A stretch of 64,000 bases of DNA, taken from NCBI GenBank assembly GCA_963700065.1, contig CAVOWJ010000005.1, positions 620,953 through 684,952 of the forward strand, in the 5' to 3' direction. A program made the translations under genes and the position numbers. The notes below the pieces were generated by a model that made no database searches, had not been told where the DNA came from, and was given only the letters and a program-made list of their open reading frames with translations. Position 1 is the stretch's first letter. Each line of letters opens with the position of its first letter. Origin of the DNA: an uncultured Acidobacteriota bacterium (GTDB lineage: Bacteria > Acidobacteriota > Vicinamibacteria > Vicinamibacterales > JAKQTR01). Positions 38,144-48,848 of the stretch are shown here, piece after piece.

Positions 38144-38260
38144 GCCTCACGTTACCGGCAGCGTCGCGACACTGTCAACAGCGCGCGCCCGCCTCCGCTG
38201 AACGGCCTGACGGCCAGCTCCGGCGCGGTCTCGCGACGTGGCTCGACCTTGTGCTCGACC

Positions 38261-38290
38261 TTGCTCCGGGCGCCGCGCGGCGCCTACAAT
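38261..38290 (+). promoter_or_regulatory. Candidate sigma70 promoter for the response-regulator gene (TTGCTC-18 nt-TACAAT)
   Basis: TTGCTC at 38261-38266 and TACAAT at 38285-38290. The -35 overlaps the second copy of a direct repeat, gctcgaccttg (38241-38251 and 38253-38263). Confidence 0.3.
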
Positions 38291-38330
38291 CAGCCGACTT
38301 CTGCGCCCCGCGCCCGAAAGGACCGCACCC

Positions 38331-39728
<1,398 letters not shown>

Positions 39729-40002
39729 CCCTTGCAGGCTGCGTGGGTCAGCGACGAATCTGAACCTTGGGGGCGTCGCAGAAACTGCAACGGGTGTCTC
39801 GCTCTGATGTGGCAGCTGCCGCCACGTGTCTCCATTGTGGACACCGACGCGCACGGGCGTCTGCTGGCAGGATGCACCCACCATTCACGAGGCGCTTTCG
39901 CGTCATAATCGCTGCGTTCAAAGGGTCTCGTCGGCACGCGGCGCGCGGCGGCCCGCAGGGTCCGGCCGCCCCGGCCGGGGCTGCAGCCCCTCCCGCCGCC
40001 GC

Positions 40003-40018
40003 CGGAACGCCCCTTGCA
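40003..40018 (+). promoter_or_regulatory. Candidate sigma54 -24/-12 promoter
   Basis: CGGAACG-CCCC-TTGCA versus consensus TGGCACG-N4-TTGCW. GG and GC have the correct spacing. It lies 27 nt upstream of the rSAM ATG (40045). Confidence 0.4.
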
Positions 40019-40044
40019 ATGGAGAGCCGGGGGATCGACCCGCG

Positions 40045-41488
40045 ATGAAACCGTCTGCCTTCAACGTCCGCGTGCCGCTCGCCAGCGGCGAGGTGTTCCT
40101 GATGAACACCCTCACCGACGCCCAGGCGGTGGTGTCGGACGACGTGGTCGAGCTGCTCGACAGGCTGGATGCGGGCGCCGCCGACCCGGCGGCGGTCTCG
40201 CCGGCCGACGAGCACGCGCTCAAGGCGCTGGCCGAGAACGGCTTTCTCGTCCGCCACGATTCGTCGGAGCGGGCGGCGCTCGAATCGGTACTTTGCCGCG
40301 TTCCGCGACGACCCGTCGCAGCTGCGCGTCACCATCCTCACCACCCTGCAGTGCAACTTCGCCTGCGACTACTGCTACCAGGGCGAGCATGCCGGCGACG
40401 GGCGGACCGCGGATCGCATGCCGATCGACACCGCCGCGAAGGTGGCGGCCTGGATCGCCGGCCGGGTGGAGGAGGTGCAGCCGCGCCGGCTCGTGCTCAC
40501 CTTCTTCGGGGGCGAGCCGCTGCTGAACGTGCCGGCAATCTTCGAGATCGCAGGGCGCCTGTCGAGGCACACGGCGGCGCGCGACGTGGCGCAGTCGGTC
40601 AATGTCATCACCAACGGCCTCCTGCTCACGCCGGACCTCGTCAAGGCCATGCTGCCGCTCGGCCTCACCGGCGTGAAGGTCACCCTCGACGGCGACCGCG
40701 ACACCCACGACCGCATGCGCCCGCTGCGGGGCGGCCAGGGCACGTTCGACCGTATCATCGAGAACGTCCGCCGCGTGGCGCCGCTGGTGCCGATCACCAT
40801 CGGCGGCAACTTCGACGCGGACACGGCCGACCGTTACCCGGCGCTCCTCGATTTTCTGAAGGAGCAGGAGTTCGCCGCCCGCATCAACAAGGTCGCGTTC
40901 AAGCCGGTCATCAGGCCCGCGGCGGCCGAGGCTCCCGCCGGCGTCATCCCGCTGCAGCCGGTCGATTCGAACAGCCGGCCGCTCGGCGGCGGCTGCATGA
41001 CGGCGGCGGGGCCGTCAACGGGACGGACGGCGAAGTCCGGCTGCTCGCCCTGCGACAGCTGCAATCTCGCGGACGACCAGATGTCGTATCTGCGGGAGGA
41101 GACGCAGAGGAGAGGGTTTCCGGCGCCCGACGGCGTGCACATGGGGCCGTGCGAGATCTTCCGACGCCACTCGCACACCATCGGGCCGGACGGCTCGCTC
41201 TATGCCTGCCCCGGGTTCACGGGGGAGTACGCGCTGAGCGTCGGCCACATCGACGGCCGGTGCGAGCCCGATCACGCCGCGGCGGCGCGCCGGTTGGAGC
41301 ATTTGGCGCCGTGGCGCCACTGCGGCGACTGCCCGTTCATTCCGGTATGCGGCGGCGGCTGTGCCGTTGCCGCCCATGCCGAGCTTGGCGACATGGACGC
41401 GCCCTCGTGTCACAAGCGGAGCTTCGAAGCGGCGCTCACTTCGCTCGCGGCGGAGGCCGCGGGCCATCAGGCAGGAGGAGTACAATGA
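40045..41488 (+). pseudogene. Radical SAM/SPASM-domain peptide maturase with an N-terminal RRE-like domain; frame broken by one extra base near 40287
   Basis: MKPSAFNVRVPLASGEVFLMNTL...ALAENGFLV is RRE/PqqD-like. CNFACDYC is the CxxxCxxC cluster. FFGGEPLL. SPASM YACPGF...WRHCGDCPFIPVCGGGC. The first 80 aa are in track ORF 39826..41577 and the rest in 40169..41488. Length is 1444 nt = 3n+1. Dropping one G of tcGgtac gives ...AALESYFAAFRDDPSQLRV. Confidence 0.8.
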
Positions 41489-41577
41489 AGGTCAAGGTTC
41501 TGAAGGGTGCCAAGAAGGCTCCGTCGCGTGAGATGTGCCCGTGGATGATCACCGTGCCGCCGGAGAGCGGCAAGTAG
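41485..41577 (+). CDS. 30-aa small ORF; candidate precursor peptide for the rSAM/SPASM enzyme
   Basis: MKVKVLKGAKKAPSREMCPWMITVPPESGK. The ATG overlaps the maturase stop (ATGA 41485-41488). AGGAGGAG lies 4 nt upstream of the ATG. Confidence 0.5.
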   Translation: MKVKVLKGAKKAPSREMCPWMITVPPESGK

Positions 41578-41634
41578 GGGACGATCGTACCGACTGGGAG
41601 CTGCCGGACGGACGCCAGCCCGGACAGGTACGAG

Positions 41635-41666
41635 TCTGCGCAGCCACGCGCGCGTGGCTGCGCAGA
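41635..41666. promoter_or_regulatory. Perfect 32-bp palindrome
   Basis: tctgcgcagccacgcg|cgcgtggctgcgcaga, 16+16 with no mismatch and no loop. It lies 58 nt after the small-ORF stop and overlaps the probable SBP start region. Confidence 0.6.
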
Positions 41667-43184
41667 TCTGTACCTCGCTTGGCAGTGGCCGGGGCGCTGT
41701 CTGCCTTTGCATGTTCGGGCCCGTCGGCGGGGCCCGCTGCGCCGCGCGGCCCGCTGACTCTCACGATCGGCGTTCCCCAGAGCCGTCAACTCCGTCCCGG
41801 CCGCGGCGCGCAACTCATTGCCGAGTTCCTCGCCTTCGAACGCCTGACGACCAACGACGCCGACGGCCGCACCAGGCCGCTGCTTCTCGAGGGCTGGCAA
41901 ACCTCGACCGACGGTCTCACGTGGGAGCTTCGCGTCCGCCCAGATACCCGGTTTCAGGACGGCGCGCCGCTTGGCGCCGCCGACATCACGCGCACGTTCG
42001 ACGCGGCGATGGCGGATCCGGCCCTGCGAGGCATTTCCGTCTGCCTGCCGAACATCGCATCGGTCGTCGCGCGAGGCGACCTTGCCGTCGTCGTCACGCT
42101 GACGCAGCGCTGCTCCTACCTGCTCGACGATCTCGACCTGGCCATCAAGAAGACTGCGCCCGACGGGGACGGGAAGACCCACATCGGCACAGGCCCCTTC
42201 GCGATTGTCTCGTCGTCGCCCGACGCCATCGTCCTCGAAGCCAACGGCAGCTATCACGGCGGCGCTCCTGCGATCGATCGCGTGGTCATCAGGCCGTTCG
42301 ACGCGCTGCGCAAGGCGTGGTCCGGGATGATGCGCGGCGAGGTGGATTTTCTCTGGGAGGTCGGCCCCGACACGGCCGAGTTCCTGAGCGACCAGTCCAC
42401 GGTGGCCGTGCGTTCGTATCTCAGCTACTACGCCTACGCGGTGATGTTGAACTCGGCCCGGCCGGCGTTCCGCCGGTCCGAGGTGAGGCGCGCGCTGAAC
42501 CTGGCCGTCGACAGGCCCACGATCGTGAGGCAGGGCCTGCGAACTCGGGGCCTGCCCGCCGACGGCCCCGTGTGGCCGCGCTACTGGGCGCGCGACACGG
42601 CAGCCAGGCCCGCCGCGTTCGATCCCGCCGGGGCCGAGGCGCTGCTGCATGCCGCGGGAGCGGAGGCGCTCGAGTTCACGTGCCTCGTGCCGGCGGACTT
42701 CTCGATCCTGGAACGCATGGCGCTCGTCGTGCAGCGGCAGTTCGCCGACGTCGGCGTGCGCATGCGACTCGAATCGCTGCCTCCGGACGCGTTCGAACTC
42801 CGTATCTTGTCGGGCGACTTCGACGCGGTGCTCATCTCGGTTGTCAGCGGCCCGTCGGCGACGGTGTATCACCGCCTCTGGCACTCGCCGGGCGAGACGC
42901 CGCGCTGGAACTTCTGGGGGTATCGCAACGCCGGCGTCGATGCCGCGCTTGATGCCGCGCTGGCCGCGCCGGCCGGCGGGCCTGGCGAAGCGGCGTTCGG
43001 CGCGGCCATGGCGCGGTTCGAGGCCGCCGTGCGCGACGATCCGCCCGCGGTGTTCCTCGCGTGGAGCCAGGCCGTGCAGGCCGTGAGCCGCCGCTTCGCG
43101 CTGCCACCTGACAGCGACGGCCGAGACGCCATCTACGTGGTCAACCGGTGGCTGCTGCGCCGGCCGGGAGCGGACGGCCGATGA
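41658..43184 (+). CDS. Periplasmic solute-binding protein, family 5 (peptide/nickel type); start uncertain
   Basis: Signal-like RRSVPRLAVAGALSAFA|CSG. Family-5 blocks RFQDGAPLGAADITRTFD and IGTGPFAIVSS. The only in-frame ATG (41535) lies inside the peptide ORF and gives a 40-aa non-signal extension. CTG 41658, TTG 41679 or GTG 41685 are alternatives. Confidence 0.75.
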   Translation: MRRSVPRLAVAGALSAFACSGPSAGPAAPRGPLTLTIGVPQSRQLRPGRGAQLIAEFLAFERLTTNDADGRTRPLLLEGWQTSTDGLTWELRVRPDTRFQDGAPLGAADITRTFDAAMADPALRGISVCLPNIASVVARGDLAVVVTLTQRCSYLLDDLDLAIKKTAPDGDGKTHIGTGPFAIVSSSPDAIVLEANGSYHGGAPAIDRVVIRPFDALRKAWSGMMRGEVDFLWEVGPDTAEFLSDQSTVAVRSYLSYYAYAVMLNSARPAFRRSEVRRALNLAVDRPTIVRQGLRTRGLPADGPVWPRYWARDTAARPAAFDPAGAEALLHAAGAEALEFTCLVPADFSILERMALVVQRQFADVGVRMRLESLPPDAFELRILSGDFDAVLISVVSGPSATVYHRLWHSPGETPRWNFWGYRNAGVDAALDAALAAPAGGPGEAAFGAAMARFEAAVRDDPPAVFLAWSQAVQAVSRRFALPPDSDGRDAIYVVNRWLLRRPGADGR

Positions 43185-44968
43185 GCACGCTGCGCGTCCG
43201 CTTCGCGCTGATGCTCGCCACGGCCGCCGTGGTGCCGCTGCTCACGTACGGGGCGGTCTCGGTGTACTCCCTGCGCGAGAGCACGCGGCGCACGGTGACG
43301 GAGGGCAACATCAACCTCGCGCGGCAGGTGGCCGAGCAGGTGCGCCGCTATGTCGCCACCAACCTGCAGATTCTCGACGCGCTCGCCGCCGATCTCGACA
43401 GCACGGGGCTCGATGCGGCGCAACAGGATCGGATTCTCAAGAACTACGTCCTCCGCTTCCCGGAGTTCCGTGAACTGACGGCGTTCGACGCCGCAGGGCG
43501 CCCCGTGGCCACCAGCCGGCTGGGCGCGCCAGGCGTCCGCATCCCCGGCGCCGACGCGGTCGACCTCTACGGCGCCCGGATGTCGCCGGTGCACGTCGAC
43601 GACGACCTCCTGCCCACGGCGCTCGTGGCCGCGCCGGTCGGCCGCGGCGGCAGGCAGGCTGGCTGGCTCGTCGGCGAGTTCAGCATCGAGGAACTGTGGC
43701 GCCTGACCGGGCGCATCCGCGTGGGCGCGTCGGGCTACGTCATGGTGGCGGACCCGCGCGGCGGCCTGCTGGCCCACGGCAATCCCGAGCAGCGCTCGAC
43801 CGTTGCGCGCGGCGAGAGCCTCGCCGGTGACCCGATCGTGAAGGCGCTGCTCGGCGCCGCGCCCGGGACGCCGCAGGTCGTCGAGCGGCAGGGCCGGGGC
43901 GGCGTGCCCGTGGTCGCGGTCGGCATCCGCGTGCCGGAACTCGGCTGGATGGTGCTGGTCGAGCAGCCCGCCCGCGAGGCGTTCGCCGCGGCGCGCCGCC
44001 ACGAGCGTGATCTCATCGCGGCCATCAGCCTCGCGCTGCTCATCATGCTGCTCGCGGGCCTGGTCTGGGGCCGGTCGCTCATCCAGCCGATCCGCGAGAT
44101 CATCCGCGGCACCGAGGCCATCGCGGACGGCCGGCTCGACGAGCGCGTCCGCGTCACGACGAAGACCGAGCTGGGGCGGCTCGGCGAAGCGTTCAACACG
44201 ATGGCGGGCCGCCTCGGCGAGCTCCAGGAAGACGTGCGGAAGCAGGAGCGCCACGCCATGTTCGGCCGCGTGGCCGCGGGCCTGGTCCACGACCTGTCGC
44301 ACCCGTTCAAGAACGTCCAGAACAACTGCCGGCTCGTCGTCAAGATGCACGACGACCCGGAATACCTCGAGCTGTTCAAGCGCACGACCGACCGCGAGTT
44401 CGCCCAGGTCAAGCGCGTGTTCGAGGATCTCCGCAACATCGCGCGGCCGATGCCGATGGAGCGCTTCCCGCTGGACCTGAACAAGCTGGTGTCGGACGTC
44501 GCGGAGTCGATGCGCGCCAACGCGTCGGCCGCGGGCCTGACCATCGACCTGGATCTCGCCGCTGACACCCTCTACGTCGAAGGCGACATGTTCGCCCTGA
44601 GCCGCGTGTGCCGCAATCTCATGATGAACGCGATCGAGGCCACCGCGCCGAACGGGCGCATCACCCTCAGCACCGCCTCCGAGAACGGGCGCGCCGTGCT
44701 GCGCGTCGCCGACACGGGCTGCGGCATCCCGGCCGACCGGCTCGACACGATGTTCGAGGACTTCAATACGACGAAGCGCCAGGGCCTCGGCCTGGGCCTG
44801 GCGATCACGAAGAAGATCGTGGATCAGTCGGAAGGGACCATTGCCGCCACGAGCGTCGTGGGCGCGGGCACGACCTTCGCCGTGTCGCTTGCACGGGCCC
44901 CAGCGCCGGCGGAGGGAATTCCCGGCGAGCCTGGCGGCGAGCCGGCCGACTGGCCGGCGCCGGTGTAG
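43181..44968 (+). CDS. Sensor histidine kinase (TM, Cache-like periplasmic domain, TM, HAMP, HisKA, HATPase)
   Basis: The ATG overlaps the SBP stop (ATGA 43181-43184). HAMP IQPIREIIRGTEAIADGRLDERV. H-box AAGLVHDLSHPFKN. N/G boxes NLMMNAIEA, VADTGCGI and GLGLGLAI. Confidence 0.9.
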   Translation: MSTLRVRFALMLATAAVVPLLTYGAVSVYSLRESTRRTVTEGNINLARQVAEQVRRYVATNLQILDALAADLDSTGLDAAQQDRILKNYVLRFPEFRELTAFDAAGRPVATSRLGAPGVRIPGADAVDLYGARMSPVHVDDDLLPTALVAAPVGRGGRQAGWLVGEFSIEELWRLTGRIRVGASGYVMVADPRGGLLAHGNPEQRSTVARGESLAGDPIVKALLGAAPGTPQVVERQGRGGVPVVAVGIRVPELGWMVLVEQPAREAFAAARRHERDLIAAISLALLIMLLAGLVWGRSLIQPIREIIRGTEAIADGRLDERVRVTTKTELGRLGEAFNTMAGRLGELQEDVRKQERHAMFGRVAAGLVHDLSHPFKNVQNNCRLVVKMHDDPEYLELFKRTTDREFAQVKRVFEDLRNIARPMPMERFPLDLNKLVSDVAESMRANASAAGLTIDLDLAADTLYVEGDMFALSRVCRNLMMNAIEATAPNGRITLSTASENGRAVLRVADTGCGIPADRLDTMFEDFNTTKRQGLGLGLAITKKIVDQSEGTIAATSVVGAGTTFAVSLARAPAPAEGIPGEPGGEPADWPAPV

Positions 44969-45883: not shown

Positions 45884-46149
45884 GCGACGGCGAGCCGTTC
45901 GTGTTGCCTGTCGATGGCACGCTCGACCTGCACGCGTTCGAACCGCGCCATGCGACATCGGTGGTCGAGGAGTACGTCAACGAGGCGCACGCCCGCGGCC
46001 TGCCGGAGATCCGCATCGTGCACGGCCGCGGCGCCGGCGTGCTGCGCGGCATCGTTCAGGGCGCGCTCGAGAAGCACCCGCTCGTGGCCGCGTTCTGGGA
46101 CGAAGCCGAGTCCCACTTGGGAGCGACGGGGGCGCGGCTCGTGCCGTAG
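45880..46149 (+). CDS. Smr domain protein
   Basis: LDLHAFEP...[14 protein letters not shown] matches the Smr motif. ATGA overlap with queF. Confidence 0.75.
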
Positions 46150-46153
46150 TGGT

Positions 46154-46202
46154 GGGATTGGGGATTCGCGGCACGGGACTCGGGACTCGGGACTCGGGAC
46201 TC
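46154..46202. repeat. Heptamer array (GGGATTG, GGGATTC, then GGGACTC x4)
   Basis: gggattg gggattc gcggcac gggactc x4, followed by the hairpin gtcgaggc-ttca-gcctcgac (46220-46239). Confidence 0.85.
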
Positions 46203-46262
46203 GGCTGGTTCGGATGGAGGTCGAGGCTTCAGCCTCGACGGACAGGCGAGAGGACACGAGTC

Positions 46263-48848
46263 ATGCGACGCGGCAGAACGCCCTTCGGTGTCACGCTGAT
46301 CATCAGCCTCTTCGTCCTTCTGCCACTGCGCGCGGCCGCGCAGGTGCCGGCGCCGGAGTCGTTCTTCGGCTTCAGGATGGGCACCGACGGCCGGCTCGCC
46401 GACTGGCCGTCGATCACGAAGTACTTCGAGGCCGTGGCGGCCGCCTCGCCCCGCGTCGAACTGGTGGACATCGGCCCGACCACCGAGGGCCGCCGCATCA
46501 TCGGCGCCATCATCAGCTCGGCGGAGAACATCAAGAACCTCCCCGCGCTGCAGTCCTTCAACCGGCTGCTCGCCGACCCGCGGAGGCTGGCCGACGAAGG
46601 CGAGCGCTTGGCCGCGGTGAGCGCGGCGAGGGCGGTGGTCGCGATTGGCTGCAGCATCCACTCGAGCGAGATCGGCGCGACGCAGTCGGCCAGCGACCTG
46701 CTCTACGAGCTCGCCACCGCGGGCGACGCGCGCACGGCGGCCATTCTCGACCGCACCATCGTGATCCTCATGCCGTCGCTGAACCCGGACGGCCACGAGC
46801 TGGTGATCGACTGGCACCGGAAGATGCAGGGCACGCCGTTCGAAGGCGGCCAGATGCCGTGGTCGTACCACAAGTACGTGGGCCACGACATCAACCGCGA
46901 CGCGTTCATGCTGAACATGGCGGAGAACCGGACGCTGGCGCGGTTCCTCTCGCGCGAGTGGCACCCCCAGGTGTTCCTCTCCATGCACCAGATGGGCGCC
47001 AACGGCCCGCGGTTCTTCGTGCCACCCAACTACGATCCCATCGACACGAACCAGGACCCGCTCATCTGGCGCGAGGCGGCCCTGCTCGGCAGCGCGATGG
47101 CGCTGGAACTCGAGAGCCAGGGCAAGTCGGGCGTGGTCTCGAACGCGATGTACGACTACTACTGGCCGGGGTACGAGGACTCCGCGCCCCTCGGCCGCAA
47201 CACGGTGTGCCTGCTGACCGAGGTCGCGTCGGCGAAACTCGCGAGCCCGATCGAGGTGGCCGCCAAGGATCTGCGCGGCGCGACGCGCGGCCTCCCGCAG
47301 TACGCGCCGCAGATCAACTTCCCCAACCCCTGGCCGGGCGGCACCTGGCGCCTCGGCGACATCGTCGACTACAACCTCACGGCCGTGCGCGGACTGCTGC
47401 AGGCTGCCTCGCGCTACCGCGACGAGCTGGTGTCGAACGTCGTGGCGATGGGTCAACGGTCGGTCGAGCGCGGCGCGAAGGAAGGGCCCTACGCGTTCGC
47501 GATCCCGCCCGACCAGCACGACCCGGCCGCCGCGAACACGCTGATCAACCTGCTCGCCGAGGGCGGCGTCGACGTGCAGCAGGTGTCCGAGCCGTTCAAG
47601 CTGGGAGACACCGTCTACCCGGTCGGCACGGCGTTCGTGATGATGGCGCAGCCGTTCCGCGCGTACGCGAAGAGCCTGCTGGAGGTGCAGAAGTACCCCG
47701 CGCGGAAGCTGGCCGGGTCGGCGGCGCCGGAGCGGCCGTACGACGTGGCCGGCTGGACGCTGCCGCTCCAGATGGGGGTGCGCGTCGAGCGCATCGAGGC
47801 CGCGTTCGAGGCGCCGCTCATGTCGCGGATCGATCGCGTGGCGACGTCGCCGGTGTGGCCGCTCGGGTATCCGAAGCCGGACTACTACCTGGTGGACGCC
47901 CGTGGAACGGCCGGTGCCCTCGCCGCGAACCGCCTGCTCGCCGCGGGGCTGAACGTCGAGTGGGCGAGCGGCATGGTCACGCAGGACGGCGCCACCTACC
48001 GGCCCGGCACGCTGCTTGTCCGGCCGGTCGGCGAGGCCAAGCCGGTTGTCGAGCGCCTCGCCCGCGAACTGGGGGTGCGCGTGTTCGGCGCGCGCGGCCG
48101 GCGGCCGCCGTCACGCCAGATCGTCGGGGCGAGGGTCGCGCTCTACCGGCCGTGGGGCGACGCGATCGACGAGGGCTGGACGCGCTGGCTCCTCGAGCGG
48201 TACGAATTCCCGTTCAAGAGCCTGCGGGATGCCGAGGCGCGCGCGGGAAACCTCCGAGCCGCCTACGACGTGATCGTGCTGCCCGCCGTCGGGGCACAGC
48301 GGCTCATCGACGGCAGCCGCGCCGGGTCGCTGCCGGACGAGTACATCGGAGGCCTCGGCGACGCGGGCGTTGCCGCGCTGAAGGCGTTCGTAGCGGCGGG
48401 CGGCACGCTGGTGTGCCTCGACGGCTCCGGGCAACTGGCGATCGACGCGCTCAAGCTGCCCGTCAAGAACGTCGCCGCGGGCCTTCCTGCCGAGCAGTTC
48501 TTCTGCCCCGGCTCGATCGTCAGGCTGGAAGTCGACGGCTTCCAGCCACTCGGGTTCGGCATGCTGACCGACAACGCCGCGTTCTTCTCGTTCAGCTCGG
48601 CCTACGACGTGACGCCGGGCCCGGGCCTGCGGGTGATCGCCCGCTACGGCGAGCAGAGCGTCCTTCTGAGCGGGTGGCTCGAAGGCGAGCAGGTGATCGC
48701 GGGCAAGGCGGCTGTTGTCGAGGCCTCGGCCGGCGCGGGCCGCGTGATCCTGATCGGCTTCCGCGCGCAGCACCGCGGCCAGTCGATGGCGACGTTCAGG
48801 CTGCTGTTCAACGCGATCCTGACCGGGGGAACCCCAACGCCGCAGTGA
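46263..48848 (+). CDS. Secreted M14-family metallocarboxypeptidase-like protein
   Basis: Signal peptide MRRGRTPFGVTLIISLFVLLPLRAAAQ. HSSE zinc motif (IGCSIHSSEIG). Later HQMG. Confidence 0.75.
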   Translation: MRRGRTPFGVTLIISLFVLLPLRAAAQVPAPESFFGFRMGTDGRLADWPSITKYFEAVAAASPRVELVDIGPTTEGRRIIGAIISSAENIKNLPALQSFNRLLADPRRLADEGERLAAVSAARAVVAIGCSIHSSEIGATQSASDLLYELATAGDARTAAILDRTIVILMPSLNPDGHELVIDWHRKMQGTPFEGGQMPWSYHKYVGHDINRDAFMLNMAENRTLARFLSREWHPQVFLSMHQMGANGPRFFVPPNYDPIDTNQDPLIWREAALLGSAMALELESQGKSGVVSNAMYDYYWPGYEDSAPLGRNTVCLLTEVASAKLASPIEVAAKDLRGATRGLPQYAPQINFPNPWPGGTWRLGDIVDYNLTAVRGLLQAASRYRDELVSNVVAMGQRSVERGAKEGPYAFAIPPDQHDPAAANTLINLLAEGGVDVQQVSEPFKLGDTVYPVGTAFVMMAQPFRAYAKSLLEVQKYPARKLAGSAAPERPYDVAGWTLPLQMGVRVERIEAAFEAPLMSRIDRVATSPVWPLGYPKPDYYLVDARGTAGALAANRLLAAGLNVEWASGMVTQDGATYRPGTLLVRPVGEAKPVVERLARELGVRVFGARGRRPPSRQIVGARVALYRPWGDAIDEGWTRWLLERYEFPFKSLRDAEARAGNLRAAYDVIVLPAVGAQRLIDGSRAGSLPDEYIGGLGDAGVAALKAFVAAGGTLVCLDGSGQLAIDALKLPVKNVAAGLPAEQFFCPGSIVRLEVDGFQPLGFGMLTDNAAFFSFSSAYDVTPGPGLRVIARYGEQSVLLSGWLEGEQVIAGKAAVVEASAGAGRVILIGFRAQHRGQSMATFRLLFNAILTGGTPTPQ

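Follow-up and report, generated by a model that had tools for sequence, protein, structure and literature searches.

A small gene conserved behind a radical SAM/SPASM maturase in Vicinamibacterales: a probable RiPP precursor within a five-gene module

The stretch of DNA considered here, called the window below, comprises 64,000 nucleotides (64 kb) of contig CAVOWJ010000005.1 from an uncultured Acidobacteriota bacterium of the order Vicinamibacterales. It contains a gene for a radical S-adenosylmethionine (rSAM) enzyme with a SPASM domain and, directly behind it on the same strand, an open reading frame (ORF) of 30 codons, 41485..41577, which ends with TAG (41575-41577) and would be translated as MKVKVLKGAKKAPSREMCPWMITVPPESGK. 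A first-pass annotation of this DNA had proposed that the ORF is a real small gene specifying the precursor of a peptide that is made by the ribosome and modified after translation (RiPP), to be processed by the neighbouring enzyme, and that proposal is supported by the conservation of a co-oriented ORF in relatives and by frame-specific selection on it. The ORF is a genuine protein-coding gene under selection, and we consider it likely, as the best explanation overall, that it encodes the substrate peptide of the upstream rSAM/SPASM enzyme. The features of the locus are collected in Table 1.

Table 1. Features at the maturase-peptide locus, with positions in the window
Feature	Position	Strand	Remarks
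Sigma-54-dependent response regulator	38238..39728	+	Pfam Response_reg, Sigma54_activat, AAA_lid_14, HTH_8 (Fis-type helix-turn-helix); start codon uncertain
Sigma-54 -24/-12 promoter-like element	40002..40017	+	CGGAACGCCCCTTGCA (GG-N10-GC); 28 nt before maturase ATG
Putative radical SAM/SPASM peptide maturase, N-terminal RRE-like domain	40045..41488	+	Pfam Radical_SAM; TIGR04280 below cutoff; frameshifted here
Shine-Dalgarno sequence	41473..41480	+	AGGAGGAG; 4 nt before peptide ATG (spacer 'taca'); SD-like motif at 77 of 81 homologous ORFs
Probable precursor peptide gene (30 aa)	41485..41577	+	Leader MKVKVLKGAKKAPSREM, invariant Cys18, core CPWMITVPPESGK; conservation, purifying selection, tandem copies in relatives
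Strong stem-loop (7+15 bp, 22-bp stem)	41626..41675	+	RNA fold of 41575-41700: -68.5 kcal/mol, z = -3.4
Family-5 solute-binding protein SBP_bac_5	41685..43184	+	Pfam SBP_bac_5, 205 bits; start uncertain, probably upstream of 41685
Sensor histidine kinase (dCache_1, HAMP, HATPase_c)	43181..44968	+	Pfam; gene call in L081; conserved in related and distant loci

The ATG of the small ORF (41485-41487) overlaps the TGA of the maturase gene (41486-41488) in the sequence ATGA, and the Shine-Dalgarno (SD) sequence which the first-pass annotation had placed 4 nt before this ATG is indeed present. The two signals had been read as the mark of a real gene. Taken alone, an ORF of this kind with its SD is insignificant in such GC-rich DNA: 86 ORFs of at least 25 amino acids overlap 11 kb of it, and the 8-mer AGGAGGAG occurs three times in the window, for 1.9 occurrences expected. 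What lifts the ORF above chance is the comparison with related loci, because of the profile matches, the ratio of non-synonymous to synonymous differences (pN/pS) and the SD-like motifs found there. The accompanying remark that most starts of this genome have weak SDs is roughly right, since no SD precedes any of the seven neighbouring gene starts as called in L081 and a 5-mer SD stands before any candidate start in only 5 of the 23 likely coding ORFs of the window. Translational coupling to the maturase gene had been proposed as well. It fits the window's subclade and a few distant relatives, in which the ATGA overlap is kept, but not most relatives, in which a gap of 5-77 nt separates the two genes and the peptide gene has its own SD.

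The peptide gene is identical at the DNA level in two 98%-identical contigs, L081 and L082, and was called as a gene in both. Gene callers list the ORF in relatives too, always as 'hypothetical protein', also when looked up by exact sequence, and its initial description as unannotated has to be corrected to that extent. No second copy of the peptide was found within the 64-kb window. Two database or reading-frame oddities may be mentioned here. A protein of 483 aa labelled 'serine protease AprX' (P0137) shares a 90% cluster with a 33-aa peptide of the family, possibly through a read-through gene call or a clustering artefact. In the window itself, an ORF of 583 aa (39826-41577, + strand) is open in the frame of the peptide across the whole maturase gene and is an artefact of high GC content.

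A scan with one genome per species gave 319 maturase relatives, from which 80 loci were kept, essentially all of them in metagenome-assembled genomes (MAGs) of Vicinamibacterales/Acidobacteriota; counts 'of 82' refer to the related Acidobacteriota/Vicinamibacterales loci examined. A profile built from the peptides of 42 relatives, with a match threshold of E < 0.01, found the peptide at 78 of 82 loci, and all 90 matches lie on the maturase strand and downstream of the maturase. Three of the four loci without a match are contigs that end at or just after the maturase; the fourth, L031, is the sole locus with a complete intergenic region but without the peptide. All that is left of the peptide gene in this curated MAG (L031 5462-5677) is MKIT, after which the sequence is unrelated. 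For 113 pairs of sequences, pN/pS was 0.18 in the frame of the peptide versus 1.44 and 1.98 in the two shifted frames, and differences at the three codon positions stood at 351:239:1048. The two patterns by which the first-pass annotation had wished to see its gene judged, a conserved small ORF at the equivalent position and an excess of synonymous change, are thus both observed, and frame-specific purifying selection together with conservation at 78 loci excludes a chance ORF.

Aligned, the peptides give the consensus MKIxVVKKAxxxAKPxxxCPWxIDxPPxxxK. Its Cys never varies, conservation is at least 90% at K2, at I3 and at the Pro behind the Cys, and the aromatic residue after this Pro is strongly conserved, in keeping with the expectation that the C-P-W segment would be retained. 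The same expectation had included a variable leader, which is not what the alignment displays: the N-terminal MKIxVxKK is among the best-conserved parts, and it is the linker and the tail after CPW that vary. In sequence this pattern fits a bipartite precursor, the MKIxVxKK at the N-terminus being conserved, the linker variable and the Cys of the CPW core invariant. Eight loci have two or four profile matches, and in at least six of them the copies are full-length and in tandem: four copies, each with its own SD, in L036 (5602-6095) and in the Luteitalea MAG L076 (5577-6165), and two copies in L059, L063, L071 and L077. Tandem copies are a typical pattern of RiPP precursors. Neither Pfam nor NCBIfam had a family for the peptides searched, namely that of the window, eight from relatives and four distant ones (NCBIfam, 0 of 13).

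At 23 of the 82 loci (for instance L022 5610, L030 5443, L036 5462, L047 1574 and L052 5449, plus 18 further loci) a second family of small genes, of about 28 aa (e.g. MKNDKKETDKKKGTLRPWLVDVAVEHLR), lies between the maturase and the Cys-type peptide; it is absent from the window. Its members share PW-L-V-D-V with the main family, have Arg in place of the invariant Cys and are without the MKIxVxKK leader. Differences between them by codon position (288:226:531) are biased towards the third, which indicates coding.

The upstream enzyme scores below the cutoff of every curated family tested. Its best NCBIfam match is TIGR04280, 'geopeptide radical SAM maturase', with 247 bits for the window ORF 40169..41488 against a cutoff of 400; the intact orthologue P0001 obtains 261 bits and full-length proteins 243-344 bits, all below 400. 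Many other RiPP maturase families follow, including sactipeptide-type ones such as SkfB, all far under their cutoffs. Invariant cysteines are C103, C107 and C110, forming CX3CX2C, and those of the SPASM domain, C369, C388, C426, C429, C435, C439 and C455. An AlphaFold 2 (AF2) model of P0001, with a mean pLDDT (predicted local distance difference test) of 69.7 and a SPASM region poorly modelled without its clusters, has an N-terminal beta3-alpha3 (three-strand, three-helix) domain with a pLDDT of about 85. Its best fold matches are CteB, TigE, ChlB, SuiB and SkfB, of which CteB and TigE match over the full length, and CteB is also the best sequence match in the PDB (profile E = 2.4e-25). P0001 has the three attributes of a suitable partner enzyme, that is CX3CX2C, the SPASM cysteines and a peptide-recognition domain, and, judging from sequence and model, we take the maturase to be a SPASM peptide maturase with a RiPP recognition element (RRE)-like domain.

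In the window the maturase gene is split between two frames. The alignment of ORF 40169..41488 with TIGR04280 starts at model position 81, and the N-terminus is found in another frame, from ATG 40045; joined, the two frames give a 480-aa maturase, to which thousands of uninterrupted homologues align along the entire length (100%), with identities of up to 98%. The cause is one extra G at 40286/40287 (TCGGTAC in the window versus TCGTAC in L081 and L082), which leaves residues 1-81 in frame 1 and puts the remainder in the frame of ORF 40169..41488 (+1 frameshift). As the sequence stands, a ribosome starting at ATG 40045 would stay in the frame of the 583-aa artefact ORF and end at the peptide's stop. 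Such a shift after codon 81, seen against two nearly identical contigs, is what one would expect if the system were decaying in this genome, with the maturase a pseudogene and the intact peptide gene a functionless remnant. We regard this as rather unlikely: the extra G is the sole indel in an alignment of about 6.2 kb with L081, the peptide gene, its SD and the hairpin behind it are identical or nearly identical to those of intact relatives, and isolated, error-like frameshifts also occur in the maturase tail or the peptide gene of L002, L011 and L015, MAG loci of long-read style, which suggests that indel errors are common in the data set. The insertion is either an assembly error or a very recent inactivation.

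Turning to the surroundings, the promoter-like element in front of the maturase has counterparts of the type [TC]GGAAY-N5-TTGC[AT] at 73 of 82 related loci, no more than 150 nt upstream of the maturase. A scan for sigma-70 promoters and intrinsic terminators returned no sigma-70-like site and called no terminator. Most relatives likewise have a strong hairpin behind their last peptide copy, and several of lower GC content (L025, L027, L040, L054, L055, L062, L064 and L073) have a T-run after it; the hairpin of the window was not called by the simple terminator scan because there is no T-run here. It is probably a terminator or an mRNA-stabilizing element that separates the precursor transcript from the genes downstream. 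Rfam gave only a sub-threshold match to RsmY (E = 0.37).

The genes flanking this unit are a response regulator upstream and, downstream, a solute-binding protein (SBP) and a kinase. The regulator is AtoC/NtrC-like by its best NCBIfam matches, all of them below cutoff, and is the presumed activator of the rSAM-peptide operon; LuxO is also among its matches (312 bits versus a cutoff of 800). The SBP matches NikA, GsiB, CntA and DppA in NCBIfam, all far below cutoff; no ABC (ATP-binding cassette) permease or ATPase genes stand beside it in the window. Nearly all related loci have this SBP, and of the proteins in the module it diverges fastest (28-65% identity). The ATG of the kinase overlaps the stop of the SBP (ATGA, 43181-43184), in the same manner as peptide and maturase. 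The order regulator, maturase, peptide(s), SBP, kinase is kept in nearly all 82 loci. Some details of the region may be recorded. The hairpin region (41626-41700) overlaps the probable start region of the SBP, the called GTG at 41685 being only about 10 residues ahead of a lipobox-like AFAC; for a normal signal peptide (RRSVPRLAVAGALSAFAC) translation would have to start inside the hairpin, where there is no canonical in-frame start codon. About 4.5 kb downstream (46149-48848, + strand) is a gene for a Peptidase_M14 (zinc carboxypeptidase) protein of 899 aa. Lys or Arg is the last residue of nearly all the family's peptides, and C-terminal trimming by this protein is conceivable for that reason.

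More remote systems were also compared. At 50% clustering the whole Vicinamibacterales maturase family falls to one representative, and the next full-length relatives are only 31-41% identical; TIGR04280 is the best model for all those tested, again below cutoff. Next to these distant maturases lies a small ORF with a strong SD, most often with a leader of the MK..V.KKG kind and a core with Cys and aromatic residues. The leader kind is shared by MKLVVVKKGSRKENAKPTKCQAFVSW, MKIIKKGSKIVVPRPDCQVVIDWR, MKVVKKGRRKTSRVTYCRSKW, MKVIKKGEERLSEKNQVCCPAFAFPYNGYDEEE, MKLQVVKKGSRGDKKILWCWWWVGR and MKVIKKGIRKEDLKPVFCQFWLT, and MILEIIDIGIGPNPGPEGSRCCWWIRSSYA has a different, acidic leader; the cores are rich in Cys and Trp (WCWWW, CCWWIR, CQFWLT). 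Canonical TGGCAC-N5-TTGC sigma-54 elements are found upstream of four distant maturases. Gene order is shuffled among these loci. It is regulator, maturase, peptide, SBP, kinase in L103; maturase, peptide, SBP, kinase in L095; maturase, peptide, SBP in L086; SBP, peptide, maturase, kinase, regulator in L088 and L089; and SBP, peptide, maturase, kinase in L091. In L083, L092 and L093 a maturase and a kinase are present, and the sigma-54 regulator is found at L085, L088, L094 and L103. L085 reads regulator, TonB receptor, maturase, peptide, SBP, kinase, the gene for the TonB-dependent receptor (L085 1845-3371) being present inside the module at this one distant locus only. Conservation of the module through such shuffling, and over so large a distance, argues for functional coupling of all five parts.

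The shuffled loci also bear on whether the ORF is a substrate of the maturase at all. It could be a chance ORF, a regulatory leader peptide for the SBP and kinase genes, or an unmodified small protein; such ORFs abound in GC-rich DNA, the hairpin behind this one recalls attenuators, and the peptide belongs to no family model. Apart from the selection and conservation already described, the peptide stays beside the maturase in L088 and L091, although it is upstream of it there and away from the kinase, and tandem copies and the covariation of leader and maturase (below) fit a substrate, not an attenuator. We find a role other than substrate extremely improbable. An attenuator leader peptide, considered as a candidate in its own right, was rejected on the grounds that copies occur in tandem and that the ORF follows the maturase and not the kinase when genes are shuffled. 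A precursor of a cofactor, similar to those of pyrroloquinoline quinone (PQQ) or mycofactocin, was likewise rejected, the core varying strongly between species and no further tailoring genes being present.

If the ORF is the precursor, maturase and peptide would be expressed as one transcription unit, driven by the sigma-54 promoter and closed by the hairpin, inside a five-part module made of the sigma-54 regulator, the maturase, the peptide, the orphan SBP_bac_5 protein and the dCache/HAMP kinase. The Lys-rich leader, MK(I/V)xVxKK, would dock as a beta-strand on the N-terminal RRE-like domain of the maturase, which by radical chemistry would then introduce a cross-link into the C-terminal core, in the region of the invariant Cys18. 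The likeliest product would be a single intramolecular thioether from Cys18 to a downstream residue of CPWMITVPPE. We infer a thioether as the first choice because the nearest characterized relatives (CteB, PapB, QhpD and the SCIFF maturases) make Cys thioethers. A Trp-centred cyclophane (triceptide-like, W-x-x) comes second and is a live alternative, because the residue at position Cys+5 varies and the second-type peptides have Arg for Cys; it would explain the Cys-less peptides too.

Recognition of the leader by the enzyme, and of the core by a receptor, should leave traces in the way these parts diverge. Among the Vicinamibacterales loci the SBP has a mean pairwise distance of 0.61, close to the 0.58 of the peptide; the kinase has 0.43, the maturase 0.36 and the regulator 0.27. 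In partial Mantel-type tests carried out on three protein sets, with the core taken from the Cys onward and the other proteins controlled for, core divergence tracks the SBP (partial r 0.23-0.39, p <= 0.003); no correlation is seen with the maturase (all three sets) or with the kinase and regulator where these were included. The divergence of the leader, in turn, goes with that of the maturase (partial r 0.27-0.46, p <= 0.002). The covariation is as predicted and is suggestive of the two recognitions.

On this covariation and on the genomic context one may build a signalling loop, in which the mature peptide would be captured by the SBP in the periplasm and handed on to the kinase, which would drive the regulator that activates the peptide operon. 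It is the most coherent reading of the module, and we put it forward as a tentative possibility. More speculative still, and in our opinion doubtful, is a full quorum-sensing-like circuit of Gram-negative soil bacteria, with a released rSAM-cross-linked peptide, an SBP_bac_5 lipoprotein, a dCache kinase and sigma-54 feedback, in which co-diversification of core and SBP would have produced species 'pherotypes', and which would extend to the WCWWW, CCWWIR and CQFWLT peptides. The context that invites it is the conserved sigma-54 promoter before the operon and the sigma-54 regulator and kinase adjacent to it in close and distant loci alike.

Two other functions deserve consideration. Many rSAM/SPASM-modified peptides are antibiotics, SkfB is among the maturase families matched, the core varies and evolves fast, and precursors in tandem occur at some loci; the peptide could thus be an antimicrobial RiPP precursor, a bacteriocin of the sacti- or ranthipeptide type, with the two-component system regulating production on an unrelated cue. 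We judge this unlikely, given that no locus examined has an immunity gene, an ABC/PCAT (peptidase-containing ATP-binding cassette transporter) exporter or a leader peptidase, that the position is fixed and syntenic in the chromosome across the related loci examined and not patchy, and that core divergence tracks the adjacent SBP. The second is a metal- or nutrient-binding, metallophore-like peptide recaptured through the SBP, the kinase and regulator sensing the loaded complex, as methanobactin is recaptured through MbnE and MbnT. The best named relatives of the SBP, NikA, CntA (staphylopine) and GsiB, all far below cutoff, would agree with it, as would the TonB-dependent receptor of L085 and an invariant Cys able to ligate metal. 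But one Cys alone chelates poorly, the SBP is adjoined by no ABC permease or ATPase, the TonB receptor is confined to one locus, and the core is strongly variable between species, unlike a chemically constrained cofactor or chelator; we hold this function to be very improbable.

Several points weigh against a modified and sensed precursor peptide. Mantel-type tests can be inflated by shared phylogeny, two fast markers may correlate merely by resolving recent splits better, and in two of the three protein sets a correlation with the SBP is seen for the leader as well. Within the order, the conserved gene order is in part plain synteny: LpdA and HU keep their places at the related loci too, and in-order conservation alone could for this reason be inheritance. 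No exporter or leader peptidase belongs to the module at any locus examined, which leaves secretion unsupported. As the sequence reads, this genome has no intact partner enzyme. The chemistry of the cross-link is a guess: most relatives have Asp or Glu at position Cys+5, but the window's subclade has Thr, Cys, Ala, Gly or Ser there and a Glu at Cys+9 as its conserved acidic residue, and the Arg-for-Cys peptides of the 23 loci argue that there may be more to the system than Cys chemistry.

Little is known of the physiology of the Vicinamibacterales, soil Acidobacteria that are abundant but for the most part uncultured, and the locus gives them a defined candidate for a ribosomal natural product. 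The peptide family has no name, family model or literature, and yet hundreds of species-level genomes have it, at a chromosomal site that is fixed, with deep relatives in other lineages. For a RiPP cluster, to be constantly accompanied by an orphan SBP of the peptide-binding type, a sensor kinase and a sigma-54 activator is unusual; it suggests that the product is sensed and is not a weapon. Peptide signalling is regarded mainly as a Gram-positive trait; signalling of the kind proposed here, if confirmed, would broaden this view. A maturase acting on a minimal core with one Cys is, in addition, attractive for enzymology and peptide engineering.

How does the system compare with those already known? 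By sequence as well as by fold, the closest solved structure to the maturase is CteB of the CteB/CteA pair, SCIFF-type ranthipeptides (PDB 5WGG/5WHY). CteB has the same architecture, with an N-terminal RRE-like domain, an rSAM core and a SPASM domain, and modifies a short Cys-containing peptide encoded next door. It links Cys32 to Thr37 (i to i+5), a spacing which is also that of Cys18 and Thr23 in the peptide of the window. There are differences: the maturase scores 79 bits with TIGR03974, for which the cutoff is 425, the peptide has one Cys where SCIFF has six within some 45 residues, the two leaders are unlike, the present hosts are Gram-negative (Acidobacteriota), and a sigma-54/SBP/kinase context does not belong to SCIFF systems. 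For ranthipeptides of clostridia, a link to regulation and quorum sensing has been reported (Chen et al. 2020, as cited in PMC8102284).

TIGR04280, a hypothetical equivalog, remains the best curated model for the maturase of the window and for its 31-41%-identical relatives tested, with neither the window ORF nor P0001 reaching 400 bits; none of the 20 proteins tested was a bona fide member, hence no geopeptide was available for comparison. The literature contained no paper on geopeptide, on TIGR04280 or on an rSAM RiPP with sigma-54, SBP and kinase genes, a weak negative since subscription journals were mostly outside the search.

PapB, which acts on PapA to give freyrasin with its Cys-X3-Asp thioethers, is also an rSAM/SPASM enzyme and links a Cys sulfur to an acidic side chain, and most relatives of our peptide have Asp or Glu at Cys+5. 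The window maturase obtains 113 bits with NF047865 versus a cutoff of 340, there is a single motif here versus six repeats, and the spacing differs; counted from its only Cys, the peptide has neither Asp nor Glu at +4, and Thr stands at +5. The streptide system (StrA/StrB/StrC) likewise combines a short Trp-containing core with an RRE-containing SPASM enzyme, and SuiB is among the fold matches. Streptide production is wired to cell-cell signalling, as an output of shp/rgg, with StrC as exporter/protease. In contrast, StrC is absent here, streptide is an output of signalling and not the proposed signal, and there is no KxxxW, the residue four positions before Trp20 being Glu16.

For the receptor side, the models are LuxP-LuxQ-LuxO and DppA-Tap, in which a periplasmic SBP without a transporter of its own is the co-receptor of a sensor in the membrane. 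The Vibrio pathway ends in a sigma-54-dependent regulator of the NtrC type, and DppA is an SBP_bac_5 protein which presents peptides to a chemoreceptor. The orphan SBP, sensor and sigma-54 regulator of the module are alike in arrangement, with no membership at the level of sequence; the differences are that the ligand proposed here is a ribosomal, rSAM-modified peptide and that the SBP-kinase interaction is a proposal only. Taken together, these comparisons indicate that the system works in the manner of ranthipeptide/sactipeptide-type RiPPs while falling outside TIGR04280, SCIFF, PapB and KxxxW as they are defined, and the best reading of the small gene is a new, unnamed family of RiPP precursors, possibly a sensed signal.

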